From positions 5,881 to 69,880 of IMG/VR virus record IMGVR_UViG_3300028840_002623: DNA of 64,000 bases; one strand, given 5' to 3'. Position 1 is the first letter of the stretch; every line of letters starts with the position of its first letter. The notes beneath the pieces were generated by a model. It was not told the DNA's origin. It saw only the letters and a program-made list of their open reading frames with translations, and did no database searches. Shown in pieces: positions 1-64,000 of this stretch. The DNA is from a virus. The translations under genes were made by a program, and so were the position numbers.

Positions 1-2
1 TG

Positions 3-155
3 GAAGCCCTGATTGATGATGCGAATAATGCATATGCGGAACAGGGTGGAAAAGACAACCACAAAGAAGCGGCATTCATTGTCCACCGGGTTGTTGACAT
101 CCTTGAGGATTTCGGAGTGCTGGAACGTAATGAGGATAAAATTAAAATCTCATAA
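3..155 (+). CDS. 3' end of a hypothetical gene truncated by the window edge
   Basis: Open frame EALIDDANNAY...KIKIS* ends in TAA 153-155, overlapping the next ATG (TAATG). Confidence 0.6.
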   Translation, partial: EALIDDANNAYAEQGGKDNHKEAAFIVHRVVDILEDFGVLERNEDKIKIS

Positions 156-1225
156 TGAAGCGTTATAAATCTGCAGTGGGCATTAGGGGTGATTGTCTCT
201 ATTGCCCACTGCCACTTTCTATAGATGGCTATTGGAATTGCGAACCCAATTGCCATCATTGTCCATTTCGGAGATTGAACCGGACATGGGGACAGGATTT
301 GAGACCTGCTGACCCGGATGCCATTGCCCGGAAGTTAGAAAATGGACTGAAGAATAACAACCCCAAATCCGGGCTTGCTTATGCCTTGAAATTAAAAAAG
401 ACAATTCGGATTGGAAGCCGTACTGACCCCTTCCAACCTGCAGAAATAAAACACGGAGTGGTAAAGGAAATAATCAGGACACTTATCAAGTTGGAATGGA
501 CCTTTGTAATCCAAACCCGGTTTTTGCATAACCTGATTGAATACAAACCGCTGTTAGAGAAAGCCCGGAAGAAAAACCTCATAACAATCCTGCCTATAAT
601 TTCCCCCGGCTTGGATTGGGATTTCTCCTTGCTGGAAAGAAAAACGACAACACCCATATCTGACCGGGGGAAAATCATCAAACAGTTATTGAAAAGAGAT
701 TTCCCGTTGGGGGTGAATGGAGAGCCATTCATACCCGGACACCATACAACGGAGATGTTCGCTGAAACAATAGATTGGTTGAAGAATATCGGAGTCAAGA
801 GTTACAACACCTACAACCTACACTTCAATGACGATGTCGCAAAGAAGATGCACGCCATTGGTTGCGATATAGAAAAGATTTGGGAAATGAATCAAGACCA
901 TCAATGGAGAATAATTCATCAACAACTTTGCCAGATTGCTCTTGAGAAGGGGATGAGGCTTGGTTGCCCGGATTTCGTCAATACGGGCTGGGGATGGAAA
1001 GAGAAAGCGAACACCTGTTGCGGAATAAATGTGCCCAACCCTTCCCGGTTCAACGCTCATAATTGGAAACACCTCATACAAAAAGGCTTGAGCCCGAAAG
1101 AAGCATATCAAAAAACTTGGGAAGGAATTGGCGACAGGGAGACAGCTCAAAAAATTCTCAGAGGTAACAAATGTGAATTCTATACCATAAAGGATATTGC
1201 AAATGAAAATCAAAGCCAAGAATAA
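155..1225 (+). CDS. Radical SAM protein (SPL-like), paralog 1
   Basis: CxxxCxxC (CEPNCHHC), RIGSRTDPFQP, extra Cys in GDCLYCP and NTCCG. Confidence 0.85.
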   Translation: MKRYKSAVGIRGDCLYCPLPLSIDGYWNCEPNCHHCPFRRLNRTWGQDLRPADPDAIARKLENGLKNNNPKSGLAYALKLKKTIRIGSRTDPFQPAEIKHGVVKEIIRTLIKLEWTFVIQTRFLHNLIEYKPLLEKARKKNLITILPIISPGLDWDFSLLERKTTTPISDRGKIIKQLLKRDFPLGVNGEPFIPGHHTTEMFAETIDWLKNIGVKSYNTYNLHFNDDVAKKMHAIGCDIEKIWEMNQDHQWRIIHQQLCQIALEKGMRLGCPDFVNTGWGWKEKANTCCGINVPNPSRFNAHNWKHLIQKGLSPKEAYQKTWEGIGDRETAQKILRGNKCEFYTIKDIANENQSQE

Positions 1226-1880
1226 CCGATTCAGTTTGGAACTAAAAATTCCAAGGAGTTGTGAGGCGACATATCCAAGTCTCAGAAAGTTAAAAAGAGG
1301 AAACACCCAAGAGTCAGAAGACAAGTTGAACGGGGTTTGGACCTTGTTAAAAGGATGTCAGGTGAAGGGAAAGCGATATCACGAACCTTTTGGGGGTATA
1401 GGTTTGAGTGCGCAGGTGGCTAATTCACTCAGTATGAGCGTTTCAGTCAATGAGTTGGACTCCGGGTTGTATTCTTTCCTCTGTGAGCAATACGATGAAG
1501 TAACAAATGAGGATGCGGACAAACTAATAATGGACCGGGTGCCATTCCGGTTTTTTGACCGCAACCATTTTACCTTCAACCATATTGGTCCGGCTTTCAA
1601 TGAAGCCCTTATCAAAACGACCAAGGTGCTCTTGTACACCGATGTGTTCCCATTTTCGCTGAAGCCATTTGATATGCTGAAACTAAAATTGTACTTGAAA
1701 AGATGTAAAGCCCGAATGGAAAAGGAAGGTTGGTATATACAAAAAGTTTTTCTGTATCGCAACCGCCACGTGATGATAGTAAAGATGACAAAAAATAAAA
1801 GTAAAAAACAGATAATAAAAGTAGAAACAGAACCGACAGACCCATTTGAAATGACAATTGATATAGGATTGTTCGGATGA
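1197..1880 (+). CDS. Putative SAM-dependent DNA methyltransferase-fold protein (Dam/D12-like, divergent)
   Basis: Motif I-like YHEPFGGIG and motif II-like VNELD; catalytic DPPY not canonical (FFDRNHF). Confidence 0.5.
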   Translation: MQMKIKAKNNRFSLELKIPRSCEATYPSLRKLKRGNTQESEDKLNGVWTLLKGCQVKGKRYHEPFGGIGLSAQVANSLSMSVSVNELDSGLYSFLCEQYDEVTNEDADKLIMDRVPFRFFDRNHFTFNHIGPAFNEALIKTTKVLLYTDVFPFSLKPFDMLKLKLYLKRCKARMEKEGWYIQKVFLYRNRHVMIVKMTKNKSKKQIIKVETEPTDPFEMTIDIGLFG

Positions 1881-3298
1881 ACTATTATGAACTCAGGGAT
1901 TTGATAACGGAAAAACTTGCTTACAGTTTTATGCCCAACAGACTGTACAAGGAAAAACGCCACCAGAGAGCGGTGGAAGAAAAAGGAAGAAAAACCGATT
2001 ATATGGAATACAAGTTGGACAGCCCCGGTGTGGCTGTTCCGCAGGAGCGGTTATTGAACACAGAGGAAATCAATTCATTTGTAGAGGTAAGTTGCCGTGC
2101 TGCAGCGTGCCCTATGCCGCTCAATATTGATACGTGGGATGGGTTGCTTTGCCCGTTCAATTGTTTGTATTGTTTTGCAAACGCTTTTCGGGCATCTCTA
2201 TACACCGCATTTTTTGATAACAGTAAAACAATGGGCTTCAGGCATTGCAATCCTTCCATGTACAAAAGGGAATTGGAAAAACTCTTCAAACTCCGGGGAA
2301 CAAATCCGCACGATGTCAAAGGAGATGTCGCCAAGGCTATTGCTTTGGAAATTCCTCTCAGGTTTGGAATCCGGTTTGAAGATTTTCTTGAAGAGGAAGG
2401 CAACGAAAAAATAGCGTTGGAACTGCTTCAGTATCTTTCTGAAGTAGAATACCCCACGATGATAAATTCAAAGTCAGCACTCTTGGGAAGGGATGACTAT
2501 TTGCGAGCACTGTCGGACAACCCGGCTGGAACGGCAGTTCACGTCACACTAATCTCCTCAAACAATGATGTACTACAATTATTGGAGCCGGGTGCACCTT
2601 CATATGAAGAAAGGCTTGAGGCAATTCGCAGTATGTCCCAAGCCGGAATCAAAGTTGTTGCCCGCATTGAACCATTCCTTCCCTTCATTTGCGACCAAAA
2701 GGATTATGTCCACCAATATATGTTAGAGGTTTGGGCTGCAGGTGTCCGCAGTATAACGTTTGACACCTACAGTTACACCGCTAAAAATCAAGGCATTCGC
2801 CAATCATTTATCAACAATGGATATGACTGGGATAGAATATTCCACATTGGATGCGAGAGTCAGGGCTTTGGTTCTATACTCTTGGGCAAGTTTATGGAGA
2901 TGTTCCGGGATTTTGGATTCAAGTGTTCCTCTTTTGATATGGGGAATGTCCCGGATAATGATGACGTCATTTGTTGTGAGGTTGGTGATGTGTTCAAAGA
3001 TTATGGCTTCAATTACGGCTGTACAGTTTATGCCGCACGAATGATTGCGAACCGGGGAAAGAAAGGCAAGACAACCTCTTGGAAGCATTTCAAAAAATGG
3101 GTTGACAAAAAAGGTGGCTTTCTTTCCAAGGCTCTTGAGAGTGAAGTACATATGCTTTGGAACTGTCGAGGGAATGACGCATATTCCCATTATTGGGCAA
3201 AAGGATTACAGCCAATGGGCTATGATGAATATGGAATTGTATGGGGGTCAAATCTTGAATATGATTTTAGGAAGGATTTATTGGAATGTCTAAAATAA
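1877..3298 (+). CDS. Radical SAM protein (SPL-like), paralog 2
   Basis: CPFNCLYC, VARIEPFLP, CPMPLNID and VICCE mirror paralog 1. Confidence 0.85.
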   Translation: MNYYELRDLITEKLAYSFMPNRLYKEKRHQRAVEEKGRKTDYMEYKLDSPGVAVPQERLLNTEEINSFVEVSCRAAACPMPLNIDTWDGLLCPFNCLYCFANAFRASLYTAFFDNSKTMGFRHCNPSMYKRELEKLFKLRGTNPHDVKGDVAKAIALEIPLRFGIRFEDFLEEEGNEKIALELLQYLSEVEYPTMINSKSALLGRDDYLRALSDNPAGTAVHVTLISSNNDVLQLLEPGAPSYEERLEAIRSMSQAGIKVVARIEPFLPFICDQKDYVHQYMLEVWAAGVRSITFDTYSYTAKNQGIRQSFINNGYDWDRIFHIGCESQGFGSILLGKFMEMFRDFGFKCSSFDMGNVPDNDDVICCEVGDVFKDYGFNYGCTVYAARMIANRGKKGKTTSWKHFKKWVDKKGGFLSKALESEVHMLWNCRGNDAYSHYWAKGLQPMGYDEYGIVWGSNLEYDFRKDLLECLK

Positions 3299-4089
3299 AT
3301 GACCGTATTGAAGCGATTTTCTCTCACGCAGTAGCACTACAGCAGGATGGGAGATTCAGGAACACTGTTCATTGTTCCGGGAAAATGATTCACATTATGA
3401 ATCAAGACGTGACTGTGATACTCCGGTTCCCAATAAGACAATACGAAACAGAGTTCAAACAACCAGTCAGTTTTTACGCCAACGACTATGACAGCAAACA
3501 GTTTGAAGAGCGTGACGGGAGAATTTGTTTCATCCAAGGGAATGAGGATTATGAACGCACCAAGAGTTGTAAAGTGCCCTCAACTCAAAACAAGAACCCG
3601 GAGAAAATCTGGAAGGGCATCAAGATGGAAAAAGATATCAATTGTGTTCAAATAAAATCATCCATCCTCAGCCTTCTTGAAGATGACCTGTCACATATTG
3701 AATTCAGTTGTACCGGGGGAAAGTTAAAAGTGGTTCAGCGGAATATCTTTTCAGGAGCGTTGATTGAGATAGAAAAGAAAGCCGCAAAAGGATTGCTTGC
3801 TGAGAAGGATTCAACCGGAGATTTCCCGGTGCTGGCGATGAGGACAAATGACTTTACAGCGTTGTTCTCTTTCGTGGATACAATCAAATTTTATTTCTCT
3901 GGTAATGGTTATATTTATTTCCAGAGCATTTCCAAAAAACTTAAAATGGATGGCATTGTCAGTCAATGTGTCTATGAAGAAATGAAAGGACAAGACGATG
4001 GGAGGAAAAAGCAGAAAGTCAGGAGGGGTGTCAAAGGCTCTGATAAACCGAATAAAGGGAAAAGGAAAATCAAAAGGAAAAAAGGATGA
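3286..4089 (+). CDS. Hypothetical protein, possibly sliding-clamp-like fold
   Basis: 267-aa ORF coupled to neighbours; helix/strand pattern loosely clamp-like; basic C-terminus. Confidence 0.45.
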   Translation: MSKINDRIEAIFSHAVALQQDGRFRNTVHCSGKMIHIMNQDVTVILRFPIRQYETEFKQPVSFYANDYDSKQFEERDGRICFIQGNEDYERTKSCKVPSTQNKNPEKIWKGIKMEKDINCVQIKSSILSLLEDDLSHIEFSCTGGKLKVVQRNIFSGALIEIEKKAAKGLLAEKDSTGDFPVLAMRTNDFTALFSFVDTIKFYFSGNGYIYFQSISKKLKMDGIVSQCVYEEMKGQDDGRKKQKVRRGVKGSDKPNKGKRKIKRKKG

Positions 4090-4841: not shown

Positions 4842-5832
4842 CAGACAGGATTTTTTAAAGGTACTGAACACTGTTATTTGCGGAGCACACCGACAGGAAG
4901 TATTGGAGCAATCCAACTGCTTCATTTTCCGGGAAGGGTTGGTGACATCCTTCAATGGTGAAATACTTGCCACCGCTGTACTGAAAGAGTCACCCGGAGA
5001 ATTTGCTGTCCCGGCTCACGACCTTATCAACCTGATTGCGAAATTTCCTGACGATGAAATAGAGTTAACAATCAAGGGGAATGAGTTGATGGTTGCAGGG
5101 AAGAAAAAAAGAGCCGGGCTGACTACCCAAAATGAAATACTCCTGCCCATTGAGGACATACCTGTTCCCAAGAAGTTTGGAAAGATAAAAGAAGGGGTGA
5201 TGGAAGCACTCTCAATGGCGGCAAAGGTTTGTTCATCGTCCAATGAGGATTATAGAGTGAGCCATGTACAGATTGCCCCGGACAAAATCCAAGCCACCGA
5301 CAAACTCAGATTTCTCCGGGTTACAATTGACACCGGGCTCAAAAAGATTCTTGTTCCTGCTGGACCGATAAATGCCGTGTCTGGTATCAATATCACTTCT
5401 GTTTCGCTTACAAAGGGATGGTTGTGGATTGGTAACAAGGAAGTCAAGTTGGGCATCTGTTGCACTGAAGAAGAATATTATGAGGATGCTCTTATTGACG
5501 GTGTAATAGATATGGACAAACCGAACATTGTACAACTCCCGGAAGAAATGGAAAAGGTTTTGGACCGGGCTTTGATTATGGCCAAGGATGATTGTACCCG
5601 GATGTCAAAAATAAAACTGTCAAAGAAATCCATTACAGTACGCACCCAAAAGGAATCCGGGTGGTATGAAGAGCGTCAACCCGTCAAGTACAAGGGGGAT
5701 GATATGGAATTGATGGTTGGGCTTTCGCTCTTCAAGGATTTGCTCAACAAGACAAATAAAGCGTATGTGTCGCAGGAAAAGATGAAGATGAAAAAAGACA
5801 ATGTTGAATTTCTTGTTTGTCTGGGAGAATAA
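4825..5832 (+). CDS. dnaN: DNA polymerase sliding clamp (beta subunit-like)
   Basis: 335 aa; MKVNRQDFLKVL start and IQATDKLR (beta-clamp ATDxxR); next to polymerase genes. Confidence 0.8.
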   Translation: MEMKVNRQDFLKVLNTVICGAHRQEVLEQSNCFIFREGLVTSFNGEILATAVLKESPGEFAVPAHDLINLIAKFPDDEIELTIKGNELMVAGKKKRAGLTTQNEILLPIEDIPVPKKFGKIKEGVMEALSMAAKVCSSSNEDYRVSHVQIAPDKIQATDKLRFLRVTIDTGLKKILVPAGPINAVSGINITSVSLTKGWLWIGNKEVKLGICCTEEEYYEDALIDGVIDMDKPNIVQLPEEMEKVLDRALIMAKDDCTRMSKIKLSKKSITVRTQKESGWYEERQPVKYKGDDMELMVGLSLFKDLLNKTNKAYVSQEKMKMKKDNVEFLVCLGE

Positions 5833-7019
5833 AAGTGCCGGGATTTTTTAAGGGTCAGACTACCAAAACCAAAACCCCGAAATTGCCTCAATGCGGTAAA
5901 TGTGGACTGTATAAGGATTGTATCAGTCCCAAGATGGAAGTCACGGGGGCTGGGAACCGCAAAGTGTTGTTTGTCGCTGAAGCCCCCGGTGAAGAGGAAG
6001 ACAGACAAGGAACGCAGTTGATTGGTCCGGCAGGGCAGTTGCTCCGGGATGCGTTGGAAGACATTGATGTTGAGATTGACGACTGTTACACGACCAATTC
6101 GGTTATTTGTCGTCCACATTCAAAAGTAGAACCATACATGATATCCTGTTGCAGACCAAATTTGCTCAAATCTATTTCACGTATAAAGCCGAATGTCATT
6201 GTGGTGATGGGCAAGAGTGCCTTGGAATCATTGATGTTCAAGGAGTGGAAAAGAGATTTGGGAACCATAAACCGATGGGTGGGTTGGACAATTCCTTCCG
6301 GGCAGTACAACGCTTGGCTGTGTCCAACTTTCCATCCTTCATACATTTTACGAATGAATGAAGACCAACAGTTGGTCAGGATTTTTAAAGAACACCTCAA
6401 ACGGGCTTTTCAATATGAACGGAAAAAAGTCACCAGCCATTCACTTGAGTCACTGAAAAGCAAAGTGGAAATTATTACAGACACCCGGAAGGGTGGTGAA
6501 CGAATGAAAGGGTTGCTCAAGAAGAAAGGGGTGTTGGCTTTTGATTATGAAACAACCGGGTTGAAGCCGGATACACCTGAACATAAAATTGTGTCTTGTT
6601 CTTTTTGCTTGAATGGAAAAGATACGTTTGCCACGATGATTGACGAAAGCAATATGAAAATGCTTTCCCGAATACTCCAGACACCCACGCTCAAAAAAGT
6701 TGCCTCCAATATTAAGTTTGAGGAACGCTGGTCACGTGCAATGTTTGGACACGGAGTGAGGGGGTGGGTATGGGATACCATGCTTGCCGCCCACTGTCTT
6801 GATAACAGGTCCAAAATAACTTCTATCAAATTCCAATCCTATGTACACTTGGGCATTCCAAGTTATGATTCAACCATTTACCCGTACCTGAAAAGCGGAA
6901 GTTCAAACGGCATTAATAGAATAGAACAAGCTGACAAGCACGAACTGCTAATGTATAATGGGTTGGACAGTCTGTTGGAATACCTTGTAGCGAAAAAGCA
7001 AAGGAAACAATTCAAATGA
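5817..7019 (+). CDS. Family-4 uracil-DNA glycosylase fused to PolA 3'-5' exonuclease (N-terminal part of split DNA polymerase)
   Basis: CGKC, VAEAPGEEED, NSVICRP, FHPSY (UDG4); FDYETTG, NIKFE, YNGLD (Exo I-III). Confidence 0.88.
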   Translation: MSGRIKVPGFFKGQTTKTKTPKLPQCGKCGLYKDCISPKMEVTGAGNRKVLFVAEAPGEEEDRQGTQLIGPAGQLLRDALEDIDVEIDDCYTTNSVICRPHSKVEPYMISCCRPNLLKSISRIKPNVIVVMGKSALESLMFKEWKRDLGTINRWVGWTIPSGQYNAWLCPTFHPSYILRMNEDQQLVRIFKEHLKRAFQYERKKVTSHSLESLKSKVEIITDTRKGGERMKGLLKKKGVLAFDYETTGLKPDTPEHKIVSCSFCLNGKDTFATMIDESNMKMLSRILQTPTLKKVASNIKFEERWSRAMFGHGVRGWVWDTMLAAHCLDNRSKITSIKFQSYVHLGIPSYDSTIYPYLKSGSSNGINRIEQADKHELLMYNGLDSLLEYLVAKKQRKQFK

Positions 7020-8407
7020 TACCATATAAAATGAAAGCGTATAAATTGCTTCATAACGGAGCAATTACACTTGCTGAAATTGAAGGCAACGGAATCAAAA
7101 TTGACTCCGGGTATTTGAAGAAAGCCCGTGGCCAAACGGAAAAGAAAATCAAACAGTTACAATCCGAATTGGAAAGTGGAGATGTCTCAAAGGTATGGAA
7201 GAAAGTTTTCAAGAGCAAAACCAACTTCAACTCCAACGACCAATTGGGAAAGGTACTGTTTGAGGAATTGGAGTTGACACCCCCGGCTCTAACACCAACC
7301 GGGAAATATAAAACTGATGAGAAATCTCTCATGACGGTTGAACATCCTTTTGTTGAGGCATATTTGCGTATTAAAAAACTCCAAAAGGCTCTGACAACAT
7401 ACCTCAAAGGAATTGAGAAGGAAGTTGTTGATGGGTTCCTGCATCCGTTTTTCAATCTGAATATTACCAAGACATTCCGCTCATCTTCTGACTCACCTAA
7501 TTTCCAGAACATCCCGGTGCGTGACAAGGAGTTGGGTGAACTAATTCGGAAAGCCTTCATTGCCCGGAAAGGGAACCACCTTGTTGAAATAGATTATTCG
7601 GGAATTGAGGTTTGCGTTGCCGCCTGTTACCACCACGACCCAAGAATGATTGAGTACATCAGTGACCCGGAAAAAGATATGCACCGGGATATGGCAGTGG
7701 AGTGTTACAAACTCAGACCAAACCAAGTGACAAAGGACATTCGCTTTTATGGTAAGAACTGCTTTGTGTTCCCTCAATTTTACGGAAGTGCGTATGTAGA
7801 CTGCGCCAAGAACCTTTGGGAAGCAATCGGCACTGCCAAACTCAAGACAGAAGGGGGAACACCGCTCAAACGTCATCTGAGGAAAAAAGGAATCAAAGAG
7901 TTGGGTGATTGTGATTGGGAAGAAAAGCCCCGGATTGGAACCTTTGAACGACACATTCAGCAGGTTGAGAAAAACTTTTGGGAAGAAAGATTCAAGGTGT
8001 ATGCCAATTGGAAAAAGAAATGGTACTATGAATACATTGACCGGGGCTGGATGCTGACCAAGACAGGATTTATTTGCCAAGGCTATATGAAGCGGAATGA
8101 AATAATAAATTACCCAGTGCAAGGCTCTGCGTTCCATTGCTTGCTCTGGTCCTTGATACGGCTCAACAAGGAGTTGAAAAAGAGAAAAATGAAAACACTT
8201 CTTGTGGGACAGATTCACGACTCAATATTGGCTGATGTTCCTGAAGAGGAATTGGATGAGTTTTTAATTCTGGCCAACAATGTAATGACAAAGCAACTGA
8301 TGAAGAGTTGGAAGTGGATAAATGTGCCGCTGGAAGTTGAAGCGGAAGTTTGCCCAATTGGAGGCAGTTGGTTTGATAAAAAGGAAATGGAGATACCAAA
8401 TGAATAG
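7016..8407 (+). CDS. polA: Family A DNA polymerase, polymerase domain
   Basis: SSDSPNFQNIP, motif A DYSGIE, motif B R..K..FYG, NYPVQG, motif C QIHDS. Confidence 0.95.
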   Translation: MIPYKMKAYKLLHNGAITLAEIEGNGIKIDSGYLKKARGQTEKKIKQLQSELESGDVSKVWKKVFKSKTNFNSNDQLGKVLFEELELTPPALTPTGKYKTDEKSLMTVEHPFVEAYLRIKKLQKALTTYLKGIEKEVVDGFLHPFFNLNITKTFRSSSDSPNFQNIPVRDKELGELIRKAFIARKGNHLVEIDYSGIEVCVAACYHHDPRMIEYISDPEKDMHRDMAVECYKLRPNQVTKDIRFYGKNCFVFPQFYGSAYVDCAKNLWEAIGTAKLKTEGGTPLKRHLRKKGIKELGDCDWEEKPRIGTFERHIQQVEKNFWEERFKVYANWKKKWYYEYIDRGWMLTKTGFICQGYMKRNEIINYPVQGSAFHCLLWSLIRLNKELKKRKMKTLLVGQIHDSILADVPEEELDEFLILANNVMTKQLMKSWKWINVPLEVEAEVCPIGGSWFDKKEMEIPNE

Positions 8408-40358: not shown

Positions 40359-43300
40359 CTATTGATAAAGTGAAACTTCATTCAAATATAAATCATGTGC
40401 CGCATTCCCAGCAATTGGGTGATTGAATCTTATTCTCACGTCACCTTCCTCTGAACTATCAACTCCGATATAATCAGACGTGTCCGCACTGGCAAAGCAA
40501 TCGTGGTTTCCAAAGGATGCCCCTGAATTGCTTTCCCCGGATTGCATACAATCTATTTTGTCCCAAGCATCAGTTGTCCAATTATAAATTTCAATATCAA
40601 CGTTATGGGTTGCTGAACCATCATACGTTCCAAGAACCCGAACAAAGTTAAAATTGTCCACATTAATAAAATCTACAATCAACTGAATTCCCGGTGTTCC
40701 TGCCGCTTCATTCACTTGGTAAGTATTTCCATCATTAGCCGTTCTCAAATCTGCAACGGCATCTGAAGATGTTCCATCATTAAGTGTAACCGAATCAGCT
40801 TGGATTTTAGTCCACTCAATCTTTCCATCATCAGTAAAGGTTACATCACCCTGATGCTCAACATCACCACCAAAGAAGTTTGGTATGTCATCCTTTTGGT
40901 AAATCGCATAATCAAAATCAGGTGTTCCCAATTTTTCAATATAAAGCAAGTAAGCAAGCGATGTAGATGCCCGTGTCAAACCCGTTCCCATTTGCCCGGT
41001 TATTTTTGAAACTATTAAATCACCATCCAATGTTCCCGAAAAAGCATAAGCATAATTCCACAAACCAAGTATATCACCACCCACATCCATATTTTGAGAA
41101 ACAGTATAATTGCGAAAGCCTATGAGGTCATTGCCTGCTCTTAATTCTCCGTTTTCAATAAGAGTGGTATTGTACAAACCCGTGCAAGAAGCAAAAGCAT
41201 TTGCTCCCACAGCCCCACTATCTGTAAGTTTTGTTTGTATTCTTACACCTGTAAGGTATGAACCTGAAGTGTGGGTTCCCCCTGTAACTATAAATTCATA
41301 ATCATGAGGATAAATCGCACCCCCGGTATCAGACCAACTCCCTGAAAAATATGTTTTAAAAATCTGGTCAGGAAAATCTCTCCAAGCCGTTGGATTATTT
41401 CCCACATACAACGCTACAGTATCAAAATATGCCGGAGTGTCAATGGTCAAATAATCTCCAGACACTACAAACTGCAAATGGTCAATTTCATAACCTGAAG
41501 AACCAATCATCATTTCATTTGCCTGGGTGGTGGTCGCTGACCTTCCGATTGCAATACTTGAATTGTGAGCAATTACAGTTCCATCACCAATACCAACTGC
41601 ATCTATTCCGGTCATGGTATTGTAACCACCAACGTTTACAGAATTGGCAGTTGCTTCTGAATTTCTTCCAAATGTAATTGCCCTTCCACCTGTTCCTTCT
41701 GCTGACCTTCCAATTATAACGCAAGAGGCATTTGTGTTTCCATCAGCACCAGCCCCAATTACAACTGAATCATTATCTGATACTGCTGAATTTCCAATTA
41801 CAACTACATCACCACCAACCGCCTGTGCGTTGTTTCCAATTATAATTGTATTGCCGGAAGTTGTTGTTATGGAATTTCCAATTGCAATGGCATTTCCTGC
41901 ATCAGTTCCTTCACCAACTATAATTCCACTTCCAAATGAATTTCTTCCAATTATAGTTGCATCACTTCCTGTTGTATATGAACTTTCACCTATTACAACT
42001 GCGTTCCTGTATTCTGAATAAGCACTTGCACCAATAACAGTTTGATGGTCAGCACCAACTGCGTAGGCTTCATATCCTATTACAACTGAATCTTCACCCC
42101 CAGCAGAATTACCAATAAAAGCATTATACCCAATTACAATTCCACGGTCATCATCTACAATGGCTCCATGACCAATAGCAATTGAACCTGTAAATTCTAC
42201 AATGGCACTATACCCAATAGCAACACCATAATTTACATTCGCATCCGCATCTCTTCCAATAGCCACAGCTCTGTAAGAAGCAATCGCACTTCTACCAACA
42301 ATTACAGCATCTCCATTTGTTGAGGAAGCGTCTTGACCTATCACAACACAACTGATAGAAGCAGAAGCGGAATCACCAATTGCTATTCCACCAGAATTAG
42401 TTACAATTGCCCCACCCCCAATTGCTATTGAACTTGAACTTTGAACATCACAATTCCTACCAATAGCAATTGAATTTGAAGCACCTGTTCCTGATACCTG
42501 AGCACCTGCTCCCACTACTACATTATAAAAAGATAAAGCAGTAGCATTATAACCTATAACAACCGATTCACTTTGTCCTGTTGCTTGTGGTGCTGAAGCC
42601 CCATTTCCTATTACAACTGAATTAGATTGTGCACTTGAAGCACCTGCTCCTATTACTTCTGAATTACTTCCTGAACCTGTAGGTTGAAAACTGAATAAAG
42701 TTTGTACTGTCAATTCGGTTCCTGAAATTGTAAAATTCAAATAATCAATTTCATAAGAAGTGCCACCAACCATCATTTCATTTACTTGGGTAACAGTCGC
42801 ACCCCTTCCAAGAGCAATAGCAGTTCCACCGACAGTTGCATCTGCTTCAACTCCAATCGCCATGCCGGAAGTTGAACTTGCAGATGAATTATAACCAACC
42901 GCCATACCATAATCATTTCCCGCACTGGCGTTCGCACCAATTGCCATTGACCTGTTTCCGGTTCCACTGGCATTATATCCAATTATTACTCCATACCTTC
43001 TTGTATATGAAGCACCAGAACCTATTACAACTGAACCCGGTTCATTAAGAGTTATACCATCCCCAATTGCAATTCCACTTGTTGCTCCCGAATTTGAAGT
43101 TGAACCCAAACCAATTACAATTGAAGTATTTCCCGAACCTTCCGAACCACTACCAATGACGATTGCTTCATCACCATAAACACTTGCTTGATATCCTATA
43201 GCAACACAATTATCAGCACCCAAAGAATTACCCACTTCAACTTCAAAACCAATCCCAATAGAATTGTCACCTTGAAGCGTGGCATCTTCCCCAAAAATAA

Positions 43301-45269
43301 TTCCATAAGAACCAAGAGCAGTAATATTATGTCCAATTATATATGTATCTATTTCACCAAGATTTGTAGATGAATTTCCTATTACCAAACCTGAGTTTGT
43401 TCCCACGGCTGTATTTCCAATTGCTATTGTTCCACTTCCGATAGCATTGCTTCCAATCGCAATCCCGGAAGATGAATTGGCACTTGTTCCTATAGATGTC
43501 CCAGCTGTCCCCACAACGGCTGAATGACCAATAGCAACTCCGGTCTGATTCACTGAAGCCCCATACCCGATTGCTACTGAGTTGTTAAAAGAAATTGAAG
43601 CCCCGGTTCCAATAAGAACAGAAGAGTTTGCGGTGCCAGTTATACTGGAGCCAAGGACTACAGTATTTGTTCCAGTTGAACTTGAACCTGCTCCGATAAC
43701 TTCTGAGCCTGCTCCTGAACCTGAGGGCTGAAAACTAAAAAGAGTTTGAACAATAGTTTCTGTTCCACTGTTTATTATACTCAAATAATCTATTTCATAA
43801 CTTGTGGCTCCAATAACCATTTCATTCGCTTGGGTAGTATCTGCGTGTCTTCCAAGTGCTATTGAAGAATCATAATTGCTGATTGCCCCTGCTCCAATTA
43901 CAGTTGTATTGGTTGCGTTTGCATCCGCACTAAATCCCAAGGCAACTGTATAGTTAGCAGTACATTGTGCCTGCCATCCAAGTGTTACAGAATAAGAACC
44001 TGTGACTGTGATTCCTGTTCCCATTGCCACTGAGTTCAATACGGAAATAGTACCAATAGAACCTTGCCCAACCAAAACTGTTCCACCACCTGTTACAGTA
44101 CCAGCACCAATTGAAATATTGGTGGGATTACTTACAGAAATTCCATCACCAATTGCTATCCCTGCATTTGCCGTTGCATTATATCCAATAGCAATTCCAT
44201 CATTGCCTGTAACTCTTGCCCCGTTACCTACGGCAACCCCATCTTCAGCCGTGGCACTTGCCCCACTTCCGAATGCTTCTGAATTTGTTCCTGTTCCTGT
44301 TGGGCGTGCGGATATATTTGTATCAGTGAAAACTATTTCGCCTGTTGTATAATCAAAAACAATTCTATCACCGGAATCACTTTCACCAATATAAGCCCCA
44401 TCAACCAAAATCATATAAGCCCGATTGACCCAAGCATTGGCTCCAGAATCCCATTGAAGAATATCATTGTCAGCAAGAAGCGAATCAAAATCACCTTCAA
44501 CAGGTTGTCCAGTCATTGAACCCAAATAACCCCACTGAGCATTTGAAATCGTGACTGAATCTATATTTTGTAACTGTTGTATTTCAGCGTCAGTAAGTGA
44601 CTTCAATTCTGTGCTCAGCGAAAGATTTCCAAGAGCAGTATCAACATCAGCCAAATCAGAAAGGTTATTTGAAGCAACTAAATATCCGGCAAGAGCGTGG
44701 TCACCCCATCCGTATGCGGTATTCCAATTTGAAATATCAGTGGAAGTTATAACAGCGAAATCCTCAACACTCCAATCACCCCATCCGTATGCGGTATTCC
44801 AATTTGAAATATCCGTTGAAGTTATGGAAGCGAAATCTTCAACACTCCAATCACCCCACCCATAAGCCGTATTCCAATTTGAAATATCGGTGGAAGTTAT
44901 GACAGCGAAATCCTGCGTGCTCCAATCACCCCAACTGTAAGCCGTGTTCCAATTGCTAATATCTCCTGCCGCAATTCCGAATGCCGGGTGAGCCGTGAAT
45001 ATTGGGTCTGTTTCGGTTTCAACGGGCTGGCCAGACATTGCTCCCAAATATCCCCATTGTGAGTTTGAAATCGTGACTGAATCTATATTTTGAACTTGCT
45101 GTATTTCTGCATCGTCAAGACCCAACAGCTGAGAAGGTAATGGAGCAAGAGTGTCCAACGCTTTCTGAACTGTCGTGTCATTGGAATCAAGTATGCCACT
45201 GGTCCATCCCGACACATCCGCTAAAATATCAGATGCAAACAAGACTGAAGGGTTCATTACAGGGCTCAT
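40359..45269 (-). CDS. Large fibre/adhesin with YadA-head-like repeats
   Basis: 1636 aa; dozens of about 14-aa (S/A)IAIG..A repeats; N-terminal tandem repeats. Confidence 0.85.
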   Translation of the reverse strand: MSPVMNPSVLFASDILADVSGWTSGILDSNDTTVQKALDTLAPLPSQLLGLDDAEIQQVQNIDSVTISNSQWGYLGAMSGQPVETETDPIFTAHPAFGIAAGDISNWNTAYSWGDWSTQDFAVITSTDISNWNTAYGWGDWSVEDFASITSTDISNWNTAYGWGDWSVEDFAVITSTDISNWNTAYGWGDHALAGYLVASNNLSDLADVDTALGNLSLSTELKSLTDAEIQQLQNIDSVTISNAQWGYLGSMTGQPVEGDFDSLLADNDILQWDSGANAWVNRAYMILVDGAYIGESDSGDRIVFDYTTGEIVFTDTNISARPTGTGTNSEAFGSGASATAEDGVAVGNGARVTGNDGIAIGYNATANAGIAIGDGISVSNPTNISIGAGTVTGGGTVLVGQGSIGTISVLNSVAMGTGITVTGSYSVTLGWQAQCTANYTVALGFSADANATNTTVIGAGAISNYDSSIALGRHADTTQANEMVIGATSYEIDYLSIINSGTETIVQTLFSFQPSGSGAGSEVIGAGSSSTGTNTVVLGSSITGTANSSVLIGTGASISFNNSVAIGYGASVNQTGVAIGHSAVVGTAGTSIGTSANSSSGIAIGSNAIGSGTIAIGNTAVGTNSGLVIGNSSTNLGEIDTYIIGHNITALGSYGIIFGEDATLQGDNSIGIGFEVEVGNSLGADNCVAIGYQASVYGDEAIVIGSGSEGSGNTSIVIGLGSTSNSGATSGIAIGDGITLNEPGSVVIGSGASYTRRYGVIIGYNASGTGNRSMAIGANASAGNDYGMAVGYNSSASSTSGMAIGVEADATVGGTAIALGRGATVTQVNEMMVGGTSYEIDYLNFTISGTELTVQTLFSFQPTGSGSNSEVIGAGASSAQSNSVVIGNGASAPQATGQSESVVIGYNATALSFYNVVVGAGAQVSGTGASNSIAIGRNCDVQSSSSIAIGGGAIVTNSGGIAIGDSASASISCVVIGQDASSTNGDAVIVGRSAIASYRAVAIGRDADANVNYGVAIGYSAIVEFTGSIAIGHGAIVDDDRGIVIGYNAFIGNSAGGEDSVVIGYEAYAVGADHQTVIGASAYSEYRNAVVIGESSYTTGSDATIIGRNSFGSGIIVGEGTDAGNAIAIGNSITTTSGNTIIIGNNAQAVGGDVVVIGNSAVSDNDSVVIGAGADGNTNASCVIIGRSAEGTGGRAITFGRNSEATANSVNVGGYNTMTGIDAVGIGDGTVIAHNSSIAIGRSATTTQANEMMIGSSGYEIDHLQFVVSGDYLTIDTPAYFDTVALYVGNNPTAWRDFPDQIFKTYFSGSWSDTGGAIYPHDYEFIVTGGTHTSGSYLTGVRIQTKLTDSGAVGANAFASCTGLYNTTLIENGELRAGNDLIGFRNYTVSQNMDVGGDILGLWNYAYAFSGTLDGDLIVSKITGQMGTGLTRASTSLAYLLYIEKLGTPDFDYAIYQKDDIPNFFGGDVEHQGDVTFTDDGKIEWTKIQADSVTLNDGTSSDAVADLRTANDGNTYQVNEAAGTPGIQLIVDFINVDNFNFVRVLGTYDGSATHNVDIEIYNWTTDAWDKIDCMQSGESNSGASFGNHDCFASADTSDYIGVDSSEEGDVRIRFNHPIAGNAAHDLYLNEVSLYQ
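44701..44963 (-). repeat. 75-bp tandem repeat (4 copies) encoding DISNWNTAYGWGD units
   Basis: TCACCCCA..GTATTCCAATTTGAAATATC-like units start at 44701, 44776, 44851, 44926. Confidence 0.85.
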
Positions 45270-51487: not shown

Positions 51488-51679
51488 TTATTTTTCATCC
51501 GGCTCTTTCGGGGGCTTCAATGTCTCTTCATTTCGGATGATGTCAATCATCCCATTCTTGAACTCAATTGTCATCTTCCCGTACCATCTCCGTTTTTGAG
51601 CTGACACCAACAGTCCGTTTGTCCAATTCAATTCTTCCTCTTGTTTCTGTAACACTTTCGGGTTTTTAATTGTTTCCAT
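51488..51679 (-). CDS. Small DUF2292-like protein
   Basis: YGKMTIEFKNG.I..I...ETLK. Confidence 0.55.
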   Translation of the reverse strand: METIKNPKVLQKQEEELNWTNGLLVSAQKRRWYGKMTIEFKNGMIDIIRNEETLKPPKEPDEK

Positions 51680-59463: not shown

Positions 59464-59527
59464 TTTTGGTCCTTCATAATTTCAACCACAGCACCCACCA
59501 ATCCAATCCAAGGCACTTCTGATGATT

Positions 59528-59556: not shown

Positions 59557-59618
59557 ATTAAAAACCAAAAGAATTTTTCCCAACGAATCACACCCACAAA
59601 TTTACAATCACCGGGCAG

Positions 59619-59645
59619 TAGAAATATATCATAGATATATTTCTA
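59619..59645. repeat. Perfect 12-bp inverted repeat
   Basis: TAGAAATATATC-ATA-GATATATTTCTA. Confidence 0.8.
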
Positions 59646-59831
59646 TCATAGCAAGATACATTCCCATTAGTACAAACACAGGCAACAGGGGAATAGAAAG
59701 GGCAGGGATGGTGAGATATACTGAGGGTGTTAGTTAGGTAGTAATAGGGAAAAAGTTGACGTTATGATAGAGATGTATACCTGCTTGGAGACCTTCCCTG
59801 CCCCGTTTATTTTTTTCATTTATTTTTCCCA

Positions 59832-60530: not shown

Positions 60531-60966
60531 TTTGCATCGCTTTGTATACATCGCATTTCCCGCAATCGGCTTTCCCAAATTCAGCCGGACATATCTCACA
60601 TACATTCTTTTTTAGCAATTCCTTCATCACCTTGATTTTCATTTTGGCTTGTTCTTGCAAAATGATTTCGTAAAACTTGGTAACTGTTTTCGTATACAGT
60701 CCGTTGAACGCAACCAATACCTTCTCATAACAGTCTTTGCAAATGACCCGGAACAAATGTTCATCTGTTTCCTTGATGTGTAACTCCCATTGCATATGAC
60801 TGTGCATTGGTCCATCTACATCTTCCGGGTTTGGCTTGTCGCAGTAATGACAAACGTCAGTCAACGGCTTTCCTTTTTTAAATTGTCCACAACTCCCTGC
60901 GTCAACAATTTGTCCCTTCCAAGGCAATGGACAACCCGAATATTTTTCACAAACATTGCATTTCAT
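60523..60966 (-). CDS. Cys-rich hypothetical protein
   Basis: Multiple CxxC; AAGGA RBS. Confidence 0.6.
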   Translation of the reverse strand: MKCNVCEKYSGCPLPWKGQIVDAGSCGQFKKGKPLTDVCHYCDKPNPEDVDGPMHSHMQWELHIKETDEHLFRVICKDCYEKVLVAFNGLYTKTVTKFYEIILQEQAKMKIKVMKELLKKNVCEICPAEFGKADCGKCDVYKAMQNV

Positions 60967-61010
60967 TTTGGTTCCTTTACAACTGTTTTTTTCGGTCAAT
61001 TTATTATCTG

Positions 61011-61310
61011 TTTGTGTGTGGAAAATCCACAGTTTTTTAGGGTGCAGAAAAGTTGCATTTCTTTGTTAACTTTTTAAAAATTACAGTGCATCAAGTGAAA
61101 AACTTGCAACTTTTTTTTACCCCCCGAAACCACACCTATGCTGGAGAAATAAGAATGCTCACCGGGGCAAGCATGTGTTTTGATGCAAGAATTTTTTTGC
61201 AAGTTTTTGAAATTTTTTAGAAATAGTTTTTGACTTCCTTATTACTGCTGTTATAATACTAATAGTTTATTAAGTTTTTAAATTTCTATTTTCTATTTCC
61301 TTTTTATGCG
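61011..61310 (+). promoter_or_regulatory. 300-bp regulatory element, copy 2, with near-consensus sigma70 promoter
   Basis: TTGACT 61230-61235, TG-n-TATAAT (-10 at 61252-61257); inverted repeat 61098-61109 / 61197-61208. Confidence 0.85.
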
Positions 61311-61320
61311 GAGACATGCA

Positions 61321-62163
61321 ATGGCGAAAGTGAAACTGAATCAGGTAGTTGACACGGTGAATGAAAACAGTATGGGCGTTGAGATAGAATTCTTCTGTCG
61401 CAAGTCTGACGTGTTCGTTGCTGAAGCCCTGACCAGAGCCGGGATTGAGACACGGGTTGAACGTTACAATCACTGTACTCGTGAGCATTGGAAGATTGTC
61501 AATGACGGTTCAATAGACAGCAACTCAAGTAACCATCCTCACGAAATGGAGTTGGTGAGCCCGAAATTGTACGGAGCCACGGGGCTGGAAATTGTCCGGA
61601 AGGTTTGTGCTGTACTGAACTGTTCGGAAATTGATGCTCAAGTTAACAGTTCTTGCGGGCTTCACGTTCATCAAGATGCCGCCAATTGGGGTGCGAAACA
61701 ATTTGCGAATCTTTTTGACCTTTACAAGATGTATGAGGATGAGCTGGATGAGATGGTTCCTAACTCACGCAAACGGGACAACAACGGAATGTGCAGCAGT
61801 CTTGACTACTGTGACAGTTGGGAAGATGTCTACTCACCGGACAGAGAAAGCGGAAAAAGATATCACAAAATAAATCTTTGTTCTTGGGAAACATACGGCT
61901 CAGTAGAAATCCGCCACGCTGCAGGAACAACTGACGCAAACAAGATATGTGGCTGGATGGTTTTCACTCAGGCGATTGTTGAACGTTGCGCCACTGCTCG
62001 CACTTTCAAAAAACGCAAAAGCATTCTCACCGGGATTCAGGCTTACAAATGGGGTGCTGAGATGCGCAGAAGCGGTGCTGAGGAAATTGAAAGGCTTTCT
62101 AATGTCTTCCAGGCAGTAAGGCTTTGGGTTGGAAGGCGCAAACGTCAGCTGGTTCGTGGATAA
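61321..62163 (+). CDS. Putative amidoligase (COOH-NH2 ligase)
   Basis: GVEIEF, DGSI, ELVSP, SCGLHVH, RYHKINL, VEIR. Confidence 0.88.
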   Translation: MAKVKLNQVVDTVNENSMGVEIEFFCRKSDVFVAEALTRAGIETRVERYNHCTREHWKIVNDGSIDSNSSNHPHEMELVSPKLYGATGLEIVRKVCAVLNCSEIDAQVNSSCGLHVHQDAANWGAKQFANLFDLYKMYEDELDEMVPNSRKRDNNGMCSSLDYCDSWEDVYSPDRESGKRYHKINLCSWETYGSVEIRHAAGTTDANKICGWMVFTQAIVERCATARTFKKRKSILTGIQAYKWGAEMRRSGAEEIERLSNVFQAVRLWVGRRKRQLVRG

Positions 62164-62176
62164 ACAAAATTGTAAC

Positions 62177-62203
62177 CGGGGTGGGCGATGGCTCACCCCT
62201 TTG
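62177..62203 (+). terminator. Hairpin after the amidoligase gene
   Basis: GGGGTGGGC-GATG-GCTCACCCC-TTT. Confidence 0.55.
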
Positions 62204-62215
62204 AAAGGAAAAAAT

Positions 62216-62458
62216 ATGAGCGACAAAAAATTGACCGGAACTGAGATTGCTAAAATTTGGAGGGACATGCAAAGAGCAAGACTCAAAAGAATGAAGGTGC
62301 TGTACAAGGCTTTTAAAAAGAGTTTGAAGAACATAGAGGTCACCGAAAAAGAATTGGATGAAAAGGCAATCGGATTGGAAAAGGAAATTATACCGGATTT
62401 GGAACAGATGCGGTGGATGGCTATTCTTGGAATCATATCTGAAAGGAAATCTAAATGA
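62216..62458 (+). CDS. Hypothetical protein
   Basis: AAGGA RBS; ATGA overlap with next gene. Confidence 0.6.
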   Translation: MSDKKLTGTEIAKIWRDMQRARLKRMKVLYKAFKKSLKNIEVTEKELDEKAIGLEKEIIPDLEQMRWMAILGIISERKSK

Positions 62459-62871
62459 GAGAATTATATTTTGCATACGGAAGCAATATGCATAACGCTT
62501 CAATGGCTGAGCGTTGCCCCAAAGCGGAAAACCTTGGCCCGGCTATTTTGAAGGATTGGGGCTTGAGGGCAAGACACTGTGCCGATATAGAGCCAGCCCC
62601 CGGTGAAGAGGTTCACGGGGTTGTTTGGTCTGTTACTCGTGAATGTATAAAGAATTTGGATTGGTATGAATCTGTTCCTGTTTTCTATATCAAGAAGTGG
62701 GTTGACGTGACGATGGAGGGATGCGTTGCCCCTGTAAAGGCTCTTGTGTATGTAATGATACCGGAAGTTGTAGCGGAAGGCGATGAACCTTTCGCACCCG
62801 GCTATGCGCACCTTTGCGCAGATGGTGCCAAAGAAAATGGGGTTGATGTTGACCCCTTGTTTTGTGTTTAA
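62455..62871 (+). CDS. Gamma-glutamylcyclotransferase family protein
   Basis: YFAYGSNM, VHGVVW, LDWYE, ALVYVM. Confidence 0.9.
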   Translation: MRELYFAYGSNMHNASMAERCPKAENLGPAILKDWGLRARHCADIEPAPGEEVHGVVWSVTRECIKNLDWYESVPVFYIKKWVDVTMEGCVAPVKALVYVMIPEVVAEGDEPFAPGYAHLCADGAKENGVDVDPLFCV

Positions 62872-62895
62872 TTTTTTTGAATTGAGGAGAATGAA

Positions 62896-63621
62896 ATGAT
62901 TACAACGAAAGAAAATTGCTGGACTGTTTCTGAACTGAAAGAAATCCCGGTCATTAAAGAAGAAAAGCGTTCAGACCGCTGGCAGGGTATTCAGCACGGG
63001 GAATTGGTTGAGACCATCCATGAGGCTCTTGACCGGAAAGAGATTCAGGTTCAGGATGAAAGCTGGTTCGCCTATGCGAAAGATTTTCAGAGCCTGTCCG
63101 GGAGTATGCAGTTGAATATTCCGAATGTAACCCCGGTGGAAGGAACCCAGTTCAGTCTGGGTGTGCAACACTCTAATAACGGGTACCACGCTCTCAAGTT
63201 TGCTGTGGGTGCTAAAATCTTCATCTGTGAGAACGGAATGGTCACCGGAGATTATGCTGTCAAGCGGAAGCATACCACGGGGCTGGACCTGATGGAATGC
63301 GTTGGTATCGGAATTGATACCTATCTAAACAAGATTCAGGAAGTCACTATTGTAGCCGAACAGCTCAAGGCGAAAGAGATGGCGACACCGAATGTTGATG
63401 AGGCTCTTATGGCTGCAGGCAGAGAAGGACTGCTCAGCTGGAGCCGGATTGGTCAGGTTGATAAGGAATACAACAAACCTACTTTTGCTGACCACGATGA
63501 ACAGACTGCGTGGGGGCTTTATAACGCTTTCACTTATACAATGCAGAAGATGCCCCCTCAGTACCATATAAAGGGGATGAACCGCTTCCGTGAGATTCTC
63601 ATTGACGGAGTTGCCGCCTAA
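62896..63621 (+). CDS. DUF932-family protein
   Basis: HSNNG, FICENGM, RKHT, TAWGLYNAFT. Confidence 0.75.
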   Translation: MITTKENCWTVSELKEIPVIKEEKRSDRWQGIQHGELVETIHEALDRKEIQVQDESWFAYAKDFQSLSGSMQLNIPNVTPVEGTQFSLGVQHSNNGYHALKFAVGAKIFICENGMVTGDYAVKRKHTTGLDLMECVGIGIDTYLNKIQEVTIVAEQLKAKEMATPNVDEALMAAGREGLLSWSRIGQVDKEYNKPTFADHDEQTAWGLYNAFTYTMQKMPPQYHIKGMNRFREILIDGVAA

Positions 63622-63629
63622 CGCACTTT

Positions 63630-63667
63630 GGGGGCAGGGTGTGAGCCCTGCCCCCTTTCTTTTTTTC
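63630..63667 (+). terminator. Intrinsic terminator
   Basis: GGGGGCAGGG..CCCTGCCCCC followed by T-tract. Confidence 0.8.
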
Positions 63668-63679
63668 TGGAGCCTTAAA

Positions 63680-63877
63680 ATGAATGACCCTTTTTTCAAA
63701 AAAGAAAATTGTGACCGGTGTGGAAACAAATTGACTGTAAGAATGTTATCTTGGTTTACCAATGATACACTTTGTATGGACTGTATCAAAAAAGAAGATG
63801 AAATCAAAAGAACATTACCCAACAAAGGAAAAGAATTTGAAGGTTGTGGGTATGTACCCGAATTGAAGGAGAAATAA
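63680..63877 (+). CDS. Small zinc-binding hypothetical protein
   Basis: CDRC, SWF, CMDC; GGAG RBS. Confidence 0.65.
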   Translation: MNDPFFKKENCDRCGNKLTVRMLSWFTNDTLCMDCIKKEDEIKRTLPNKGKEFEGCGYVPELKEK

Positions 63878-63878
63878 A

Positions 63879-64000
63879 ATGACCAAAGCCACAAGAGAAA
63901 GAGCCTTGACAATCAAACAGGAAATCGGTGCGGAGAAAGCAGGACAGGTCAGTGAATACCTTTCTATGTTATCCAAAACCAAACGCTCACCTGCCAGTGT
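63879..64000 (+). CDS. 5' end of a gene truncated by the window edge
   Basis: AAGGAG RBS, ATG 63879, open to the end. Confidence 0.55.
   Translation, partial: MTKATRERALTIKQEIGAEKAGQVSEYLSMLSKTKRSPAS

Follow-up and report, generated by a model that had tools for sequence, protein, structure and literature searches.

A threefold excess of the pentamer CCSGG beside extreme palindrome avoidance in the genome of an uncultured phage

Bobay, Touchon and Rocha are said to have described in 2013 the accumulation of Chi-type "self" words in phages. The avoidance of restriction sites in phages was surveyed by Rusinov et al. in 2018 (PMC6286503), and the explanation of CTAG rarity by Vsr was reviewed by Rusinov et al. 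in 2015 (PMC4687349). The 2015 survey also lists 41 Helicobacter genome-site pairs in which CCGG is over-represented at a ratio of approximately 1.4–1.5, and its authors state that they know of no reasonable biological reason for it. In cyanobacteria, the over-represented palindrome HIP1 (GCGATCGC) has been argued to be under selection (PMC5861425). Here, we analyse a 64,000-base stretch of DNA (the window), which comprises bases 5881–69880 of the 69,880-base IMG/VR record IMGVR_UViG_3300028840_002623. This genome, designated G000, is rated complete, ends in 134-base direct terminal repeats and belongs to an uncultured marine or sediment phage; a DNA search with it gave zero matches among cultured phages. 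The sequencing runs holding the stretch are one sediment metagenome and one seawater metagenome, either of which may be its source, hence they are not independent support, and they are silent on expression. The element in question is the pentamer CCSGG (CCCGG and its complement CCGGG), which is present in approximately 3-fold excess in a genome purged of many palindromes.

The window has a G+C content of 43.0% and contains 455 copies of CCGG, compared with 136 expected from base composition and 364 expected under a maximal-order Markov model (×1.25; ratios of observed to expected counts are given in this form). Our main null model shuffled synonymous codons inside each gene in 200 replicates, leaving proteins and codon usage unchanged. 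The shuffle covered 108 open reading frame (ORF) calls, that is, 97.8% of the 69,880-base genome; because the ORFs overlap slightly, counts in coding sequence exceed genome counts. Under this model, coding sequence contained 500 CCGG compared with 270 ± 11.5 (z +20) and 366 CCSGG compared with 123 (approximately ×3, z +27). The CCGG lying outside CCSGG (134 vs approximately 147) were not enriched, and 330 of the 455 copies in the window sit within CCCGG or CCGGG. The enriched unit is the pentamer CCSGG, not CCGG itself. A first-pass annotation of the window had reported the excess as one of CCGG, often in the form CCSGG; its hand counts of 12 CCGG at positions 1–1050 (11 of them in CCSGG) and 12 at positions 22681–23340, within an epimerase gene (7 in CCSGG), were reproduced, and CCGG did not fall to expectation after codon correction. 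The excess thus stood and its unit had to be redrawn; Markov normalisation, which the annotation had proposed, left it at the smaller ratio given above.

A scan over all pentamers placed CCCGG/CCGGG at the top in G000 (z 24.7) and also in G006 (z 11.4), a complete sister genome of 68,117 bases and 34% G+C that is syntenic with G000. The CCSGG factor was ×2.96–2.99 in G000 and ×2.94–2.99 in G006 (74 vs 25). CCWGG stood at ×0.20 in G000, ×1.47 in G006 and ×1.93 in a further relative, L163, and CCNGG as a whole at ×1.87 in G000 and ×1.84 in G006. We regard the CCSGG excess as real beyond reasonable doubt.

The excess acts at the DNA level: neither the codon frame nor the orientation of the word limits it, and no gene group is free of it. 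The starts of CCGG were spread evenly over the three codon frames (160/166/174), and CCSGG was found in all three, least in frame 0. Synonymous choice tilted toward the word in every frame: the proline codon CCG was used in 45% of cases before G and in 18–22% elsewhere, the arginine codon CGG in 38% after C and in 11–13% after A or G, and NCC codons in 37–52% before GG. This even spread and context-dependent choice ruled out a codon or amino-acid artefact. On the sense strand, CCCGG was at ×3.11 and CCGGG at ×2.85, and no trend in orientation along the genome was seen in 7-kb bins (183 CCCGG vs 179 CCGGG). Core genes and five groups of lineage-specific genes all carried the excess, at ×2.2 to ×3.7. 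Within the window, CCGG is sparsest (8, 6 and 5 copies in successive 2-kb bins) in the gene for a 1636-amino-acid protein (40359..45269, minus strand), which nonetheless holds 8 CCSGG compared with 2.3, approximately ×3.5 above its own expectation. A longer hidden motif and hairpin pairs were rejected as candidates, with at most 0.04 bits of information outside the bases that flank CCGG and no preferred short spacing.

Composition could produce such a word passively if CpG is disfavoured and few G+C-rich codons (CCG, CGG, GGG and CCC) adjoin, or if the purge described below funnels synonymous choices into one safe G+C-rich word. CpG is low in both genomes (×0.83 of the codon-aware expectation in G000 and ×0.76 in G006), as are most other CpG words; the maximal-order Markov model leaves CCGG only slightly raised; and under the strictest shuffle, which keeps dinucleotides together with codon usage, CCSGG falls to ×1.22 (z 9.5) in G000 and ×1.19 (z 3.3) in G006. 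However, the strict shuffle retains most of the original order (it expects 45 GATC, not 216) and so understates every effect, and the excess survives even so. Four further points stand against a passive origin: (i) in a constrained simulation that applied synonymous swaps to the real genes and forbade any increase of 25 avoided motifs, four chains cut CCGG from 500 to 246–255, failing to reproduce the excess; (ii) G006 has the excess without the purge, which together with the simulation rules out a by-product of the purge; (iii) other all-G+C words are not enriched, GGSCC standing at 26 vs 27.9 and GGSCC, GGCC, GCGC and CGCG all lacking enrichment in G006, which also rules out local clumping of G+C; and (iv) the CpG-free CCWGG is itself enriched in G006 and L163, whereas CCGG beyond CCSGG is not. 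We consider a passive origin very improbable.

The excess is shared by some relatives of G000 and missing from others. G000 and G006 have 64.5% nucleotide identity over 39 orthologue pairs and 70% amino-acid identity in the terminase. CCSGG stood at ×3.35 in L004, a relative with a terminase of 91% amino-acid identity and a nucleotide identity of approximately 82%, at ×3.88 in L163/G007 and at a weak ×1.58 in L003. The L002 fragment, whose terminase is 72% identical to that of G000 at the amino-acid level, has 0 CCSGG in 10 kb, and the remaining 58 scorable fragments of the terminase family are mostly without the excess. By contrast, an unrelated fragment, L026 (terminase 44% amino-acid identity), has 41 CCSGG compared with 14 and 2 CCWGG compared with 19. 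This patchy distribution and the recurrence in L026 point to a cause linked to the host rather than to a fixed need of the machinery of the clade, a conclusion that is not firm since L002 is a fragment.

Within the terminase family, the opposite condition was also found. L022, an IMG/VR fragment of 11.6 kb and 62% G+C, has 0 CCSGG compared with 33 and 0 CCWGG compared with 43, and CCWGG is absent from the relatives L048, L057, L067, L038 and L049. Together with L002, these relatives indicate that the CC-N-GG word family is often under opposite pressures within the terminase family.

Comparison of aligned genomes showed how individual sites are kept. Between G000 and L004, 33 CCGG sites were common and 23 and 18 were unique, giving a Jaccard index of 0.45 compared with a median of 0.32 over tetramers. 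Of the CCNGG sites of G006, 30 of 97 (31%) are still CCNGG in G000; the median pentamer retention, 18%, was taken in the opposite direction, from G000 into G006. Only 6% of the CCCGG or CCGGG sites of G000 are identical in G006. The sites may be retained somewhat better than average words. In the terminase gene, many CCGG sites correspond in the outgroups to AGA or AGG arginine codons with a different preceding base, so that several substitutions, transversions included, separate the two states. Density is thus kept while positions turn over, as would be expected if selection were weak and pervasive or if some biased process were still at work, and not if the functional sites were fixed.

The other layer of word bias is a purge of palindromes. 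The window contains no GATC, CTAG or CGCG, and one copy each of TCGA and CGNCG. The first-pass annotation had noticed the absence of GATC and CTAG (that of CGCG went unmentioned) and had placed the lone TCGA correctly, at positions 3166..3169 (context CTGTCGAGGG). Less complete losses in the window left 28 GGCC, 31 GCGC, 48 AGCT, 84 CATG, 15 CCWGG, 1 RCCGGY, 2 CCCGGG and 6 TCCGGA. In coding sequence under the synonymous shuffle, observed and expected counts were 0 and 216 for GATC, 1 and 172 for TCGA, 0 and 87 for CGCG, 0 and 61 for CTAG, 32 and 143 for GGCC, 56 and 238 for AGCT, 92 and 194 for CATG, 16 and 82 for CCWGG, and 1 and 50 for RCCGGY; TTAA, GCWGC and roughly half of the six-letter palindromes were also strongly thinned. 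The depletion of GATC, TCGA, CGCG and CTAG lies beyond what proteins and codon usage impose and persists under the dinucleotide-preserving shuffle.

The purge is directed mainly at palindromes. Below ×0.5 of the codon-aware expectation were 9 of the 16 palindromic tetramers (4 of them below ×0.1) and 8 of the 120 non-palindromic tetramer pairs (none below ×0.1). When hexamers expected at least five times were considered, 33 of 55 palindromes fell below ×0.5, compared with 490 of 2014 non-palindromic pairs; 22 of the 55 testable palindromes fell below ×0.1, and 29 of the 64 palindromic hexamers are missing from the whole genome. Among the free-centre five-letter palindromes of the window, CGNCG stood at 1 vs 136 (1 vs 133 in the whole genome), GGNCC at 68 vs 136 and CCNGG at 347 vs 136. 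A few non-palindromic words were also nearly lost from the whole genome, namely, CGAAG/CTTCG (5 vs 134), CGAAGA/TCTTCG (0 vs 55), GAGGAG/CTCCTC (1 vs 25) and several GCAGC-containing hexamers (0), and CTCG/CGAG was low in G000 (42 vs 240), in G006 (57 vs 104) and in L163 and L003.

The palindromic sites that survive follow rules of context. GGCC lies within TGGCCA in 25 of its 28 genome copies, in all codon frames (for example at window positions 5580, 7130 and 8272), and TGGCCA is at or above expectation in coding sequence (29 vs 17). A plain GGCC-cutting enzyme would not spare TGGCCA, so that either TGGCCA is protected or the pressure is context-dependent. All 37 GCGC of the whole genome have a T on the 5' side or an A on the 3' side, RGCGCY and CGCGC being absent, and nearly all 52 AGCT are preceded by C or followed by G. 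These rules suggest that the avoidance is aimed at specific degenerate six-letter sites rather than at tetramers.

The purge is very probably an extreme yet ordinary form of restriction avoidance, close to its limit and exerted on unmodified DNA. As in described cases (PMC6286503, PMC4687349), the depletion in G000 singles out palindromes, exceeds the effect of codon usage, varies between relatives and occurs without a methylase of the phage itself; unlike the cases those surveys describe, it is broad enough to bring four tetramers and CGNCG close to extinction, the survivors depend on context, and an enriched word is left unexplained. Six-frame searches of G000 with C5, N4/N6 and Dam-type methylase and Vsr profiles gave no match, and Pfam scans of 86 of its 108 ORF calls revealed no methylase or Vsr. 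The genes have been recoded synonymously until GATC, CTAG, CGCG, TCGA and CGNCG were all but lost, presumably because Type II restriction systems are numerous in the host population. L004 shares the purge with G000 and G006 does not (GATC ×0.89; GGCC, GCGC and AGCT approximately 1; CTAG ×0.54), so that the avoidance pattern varies between related phages and, being absent from the sister genome, the purge is young. A single cause for the CCGG excess and the loss of GATC and CTAG, as the first-pass annotation had supposed, is contradicted by G006, which keeps CCSGG at ×2.99 with these GATC and CTAG ratios. The excess is therefore independent of the purge, and no known mechanism that we tested explains it.

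Among known mechanisms, very-short-patch repair of the Vsr type was the first proposed for this window. A host methylase would modify CCNGG or CCSGG at the inner C, after which T:G mismatches in CTSGG/CCSAG would be turned into C:G by a Vsr-like nuclease; words would be pushed toward CCSGG, and CTSG/CSAG, possibly also CTCG/CGAG and CTAG, would be drained. The effect in E. coli is credited by the 2015 survey to Bhagwat and McClelland 1992 (PMC4687349). When the single-substitution neighbours of CCSGG were split into six classes, the inner-C transition class CTSGG+CCSAG was the only one depleted in G000 (59 vs 170, ×0.35; other classes ×0.84–1.37), as it was in L004 (×0.29), and it stood at ×0.65 in L026 and in L003. 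Repair of this kind would also account for the loss of the non-palindromic CTCG/CGAG in G000, G006, L163 and L003. However, the class stood at ×0.91 (not significant) in G006 and ×0.90 in G007/L163, which keep a target excess of ×3–3.9. The depletion of transition neighbours that the first-pass annotation had suggested looking for thus holds for G000 and L004 and fails for G006 and L163. In G000 the loss comes mostly from CTCGG and CCGAG and is confounded by the general loss of CTCG/CGAG, CTCG being low whatever base comes next (12 vs approximately 71 without a following G). In addition, the alternative words at CCGG sites unshared between G000 and L004 are varied and not mainly CTGG/CCAG.

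E. coli, phages with known or presumed exposure to its Vsr system, and T5 served as controls. CCWGG, CTWGG+CCWAG and CTAG stood at ×0.85, ×0.30 and ×0.10 in 100 kb of E. coli K-12, at ×0.68, ×0.58 and ×0.24 in lambda, at ×1.01, ×0.45 and ×0.49 in T1, and at ×0.89, ×1.09 and ×1.35 in T5. Under our null model, the imprint of Vsr-type repair is thus a loss of neighbours without an excess of the target, and it reaches lambda and T1, not T5. Lambda and T1 use host replication, and T5 carries its own replisome. G000 likewise encodes a helicase, primase, clamp, clamp loader and polymerase, and host repair would leave its imprint less readily on a phage that brings its own replisome. Profiles for Vsr (PF03852) and the C5 methylase (PF00145) had no match in G000, G006, G007 or G008. 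The pattern in G000 resembles that of Dcm/Vsr in E. coli in a CC-N-GG word with a methylatable inner C, whose transition neighbours are the sole depleted class in G000 and L004, and differs from it in the ×3 target excess of the clade, in the neighbours kept by the sister genomes and in a phage without a vsr or dcm-like gene. Because the clade shows the opposite hallmark, an excess of the target, and has its own replisome, repair of this type is a live rival, though an unlikely one, and not our first choice.

A cause inside the phage was also weighed. A shared replication or recombination protein (primase, resolvase, or the polymerase with a uracil-DNA glycosylase (UDG)-like domain) may need CCCGG/CCGGG or err toward it. 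Such a cause would fit the equal ×3 in G000 and G006 despite their G+C contents of 43% and 34%, differing avoidance and presumably differing hosts; it would fit a replication module common to both at 36–75% amino-acid identity and an excess that spans all genes, lineage-specific ones included; and if one asymmetric pentamer served on both strands, it would give exactly the picture of CCSGG. By contrast, L002, with a terminase as close to G000 as that of G006 (72% and 70%), has 0 CCSGG in 10 kb compared with approximately 6 expected at ×3 (the replication genes lie outside this fragment), L003 reaches only ×1.6, the unrelated L026 has the same pattern, strand polarity along the genome is absent, and the shared proteins include none in which a domain of a sequence-specific nuclease or methylase can be recognised. 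A modifier encoded by the phage was sought with PF00145, PF01555 and PF02086, which had no six-frame match in G000 or G006, and with Pfam, PHROGs and NCBIfam scans, which revealed none; a novel enzyme family would escape these profiles. Some of the genes described below (the radical-SAM cluster, the block with the amidoligase and several sugar-modification genes) are specific to G000 and so cannot explain a shared excess. Selection for a motif of the phage's own modification enzyme, the other proposal of the first-pass annotation, thus has no candidate gene common to the phages with the excess, and we judge a phage-internal cause in general to be improbable.

Our preferred, if tentative, account is that two independent layers of word bias are superimposed, namely, the purge and a CCSGG excess maintained by selection that is linked to the host. 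CCSGG would be held at approximately ×3 by positive maintenance of a word that is read by a sequence-specific factor, for which a resident cytosine methylase of the CCNGG/CCSGG type, or a protein of that recognition class, would be the most economical candidate. The gain may come through selection on the sites themselves or through site-directed repair favouring the inner C. Selection is the leading reading because the hallmark is an excess of the target and not a loss of neighbours. A bolder form is possible and more doubtful: CCSGG would be a genome-wide functional signal, a phage counterpart of Chi or HIP1, selected in the clade and, in a separate event, in one or more unrelated phages, and its density would stay at a fixed threefold level even as the genome loses nearly all other short palindromes; the word might then serve in nuclease control, in methylation-dependent protection or as a recognition word of the replisome.

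Several observations weigh against selection on CCSGG: (i) no factor reading the word was found in G000 or G006; (ii) the depletion of inner-C neighbours in G000 (×0.35) and L004 (×0.29) is what repair bias predicts; (iii) the sites are not regularly placed, their spacing being near-exponential (Poisson-like, coefficient of variation 1.05) and their distances modulo 3 being 162/159/170; (iv) over 31,260 aligned bases, G000 (193 sites) and G006 (39 sites) have 15 CCSGG sites in common; (v) the amino-acid cost at the sites is like that of other windows of the alignment, and synonymous-only differences between G000 and G006 (32% vs 30%) give no separate sign of selection; (vi) intergenic DNA holds 1 CCGG in 1,325 bases, a stretch too small and too A+T-rich to be informative; and (vii) the ×3 enrichment is far below the 15- to 300-fold given for HIP1 (PMC5861425).

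With these points in view, selection on CCSGG can be set beside the described cases of over-represented words. Like HIP1 as it is described (PMC5861425), CCSGG is a palindrome in excess genome-wide, within genes and in all frames, with no known function, and its sites may be better conserved than control words; HIP1 is an octamer and periodic, whereas CCSGG is a pentamer, Poisson-like and with a high turnover of positions. The Helicobacter case in the 2015 survey (PMC4687349) is alike in that a CCGG-containing restriction word is over-represented, not avoided, and unlike in that the word there is CCGG, at approximately 1.4–1.5 in chromosomes, whereas here it is CCSGG at ×3 in phages, and in that G000 does not avoid ACGT or TGCA. 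A link to Helicobacter was tried with the H. pylori phage KHP30 and not upheld, CCGG (×1.30) and CCSGG (×1.37) there being not significant, in one 26-kb genome with low power. The Chi-type words offer the parallel of a short host-specific word that comes under positive selection in phage genomes, and an asymmetric pentamer used both ways would equal CCCGG plus CCGGG; unlike them, CCSGG shows no polarity of orientation. A comparison of CCCGGA with its reversed control in 301 genomes of one phylum gave ratios of approximately 0.1–5.3, which are uninterpretable without G+C content, and was dropped.

G000 has a replication apparatus of its own. Its other products include a large terminase, portal, Mu-F-like head protein, protease, HK97-type capsid, tape-measure and tail fibre proteins. 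The replication set is full, with an SNF2 helicase, a DnaG-type primase, a DnaB-type helicase, a clamp, a clamp loader, a family A polymerase, a RecA/UvsX-like recombinase, a flap nuclease, a RuvC-like resolvase and SbcCD-like proteins; a protein with sigma-70 region 2 is also encoded. The polymerase is split (5817..8407, plus strand) into a family-4 UDG-like domain with a 3'-5' exonuclease, followed by the family A polymerase, and the two parts are 67% and 75% identical at the amino-acid level to those of G006.

A five-gene cluster in the helicase-to-clamp interval (155–4841, plus strand) is absent from G006. Two of its products are radical-SAM proteins weakly like the PA0069/Rv2578c family, which is related to spore photoproduct lyase, one weakly resembles lysyl-phosphatidylglycerol synthase in its C-terminal domain, and two have no match. 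A role in DNA repair or modification is possible. The block at the right end (59832–63877), also absent from G006, encodes an amidoligase (PF12224), a gamma-glutamyl cyclotransferase-like protein, a DUF932 protein and several proteins without a match. The 1636-amino-acid protein mentioned above, likewise absent from G006, matches a YadA-head-like repeat once and PHROGs weakly; it probably forms part of the virion as a large fibre or adhesin-like protein.

Sugar-modification genes are placed among the structural genes on the minus strand (22426–29253, 46884–47537, 51666–53539 and 55007–55765). They encode a GDP-mannose 4,6-dehydratase, three epimerases or reductases, two sulfotransferase-like proteins, an FkbM-type methyltransferase, an adenosine phosphosulfate (APS) kinase fused to a nucleotidyltransferase domain, a GT47-like transferase and an MptE-like or sialyltransferase-like protein. 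This set suggests that a modified, possibly sulfated, deoxyhexose is added to proteins of the virion or to a glycan on the host surface.

Clues to the host point in several directions. The nearest matches of the terminase are in Flavobacteriia phages (39–44%) and those of the portal in haloarchaeal viruses (29–32%); the helicase matches are weak and mostly in phages of Listeria, Bacillus, Enterococcus and Staphylococcus, the GDP-mannose dehydratase has matches of 53–60% across many phyla, and for the sigma factor one Atlas row is toward Bacillota. None of these matches settles the host. AAGGAG-type Shine-Dalgarno sites lie upstream of 52 of 78 genes (for example at window positions 48195–48215), and internal GGAGG/CCTCC is avoided in both G000 and G006 (z −6.6 each), which together indicate a bacterial host that uses such sites. 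Flavobacteriia rarely use Shine-Dalgarno sites. The sites thus argue against Bacteroidota, and set against the Flavobacteriia-like terminase, they make the terminase a poor guide to the host.

That phages avoid restriction sites is well established, and G000 is an extreme case. What is new is a single restriction-type word at ×3, in all frames and genes, and in sister phages whose G+C contents and avoided sites are not alike. Literature searches turned up no account of a CCSGG excess in phages, the nearest published case being CCGG in Helicobacter. If repair bias is the cause, a host repair pathway would imprint a virulent-type phage that has its own replisome, unlike the T5 control. If selection is the cause, the word would point to a new kind of system that reads DNA sequence, belonging either to bacteria of the sea or sediment or to the phages that infect them.

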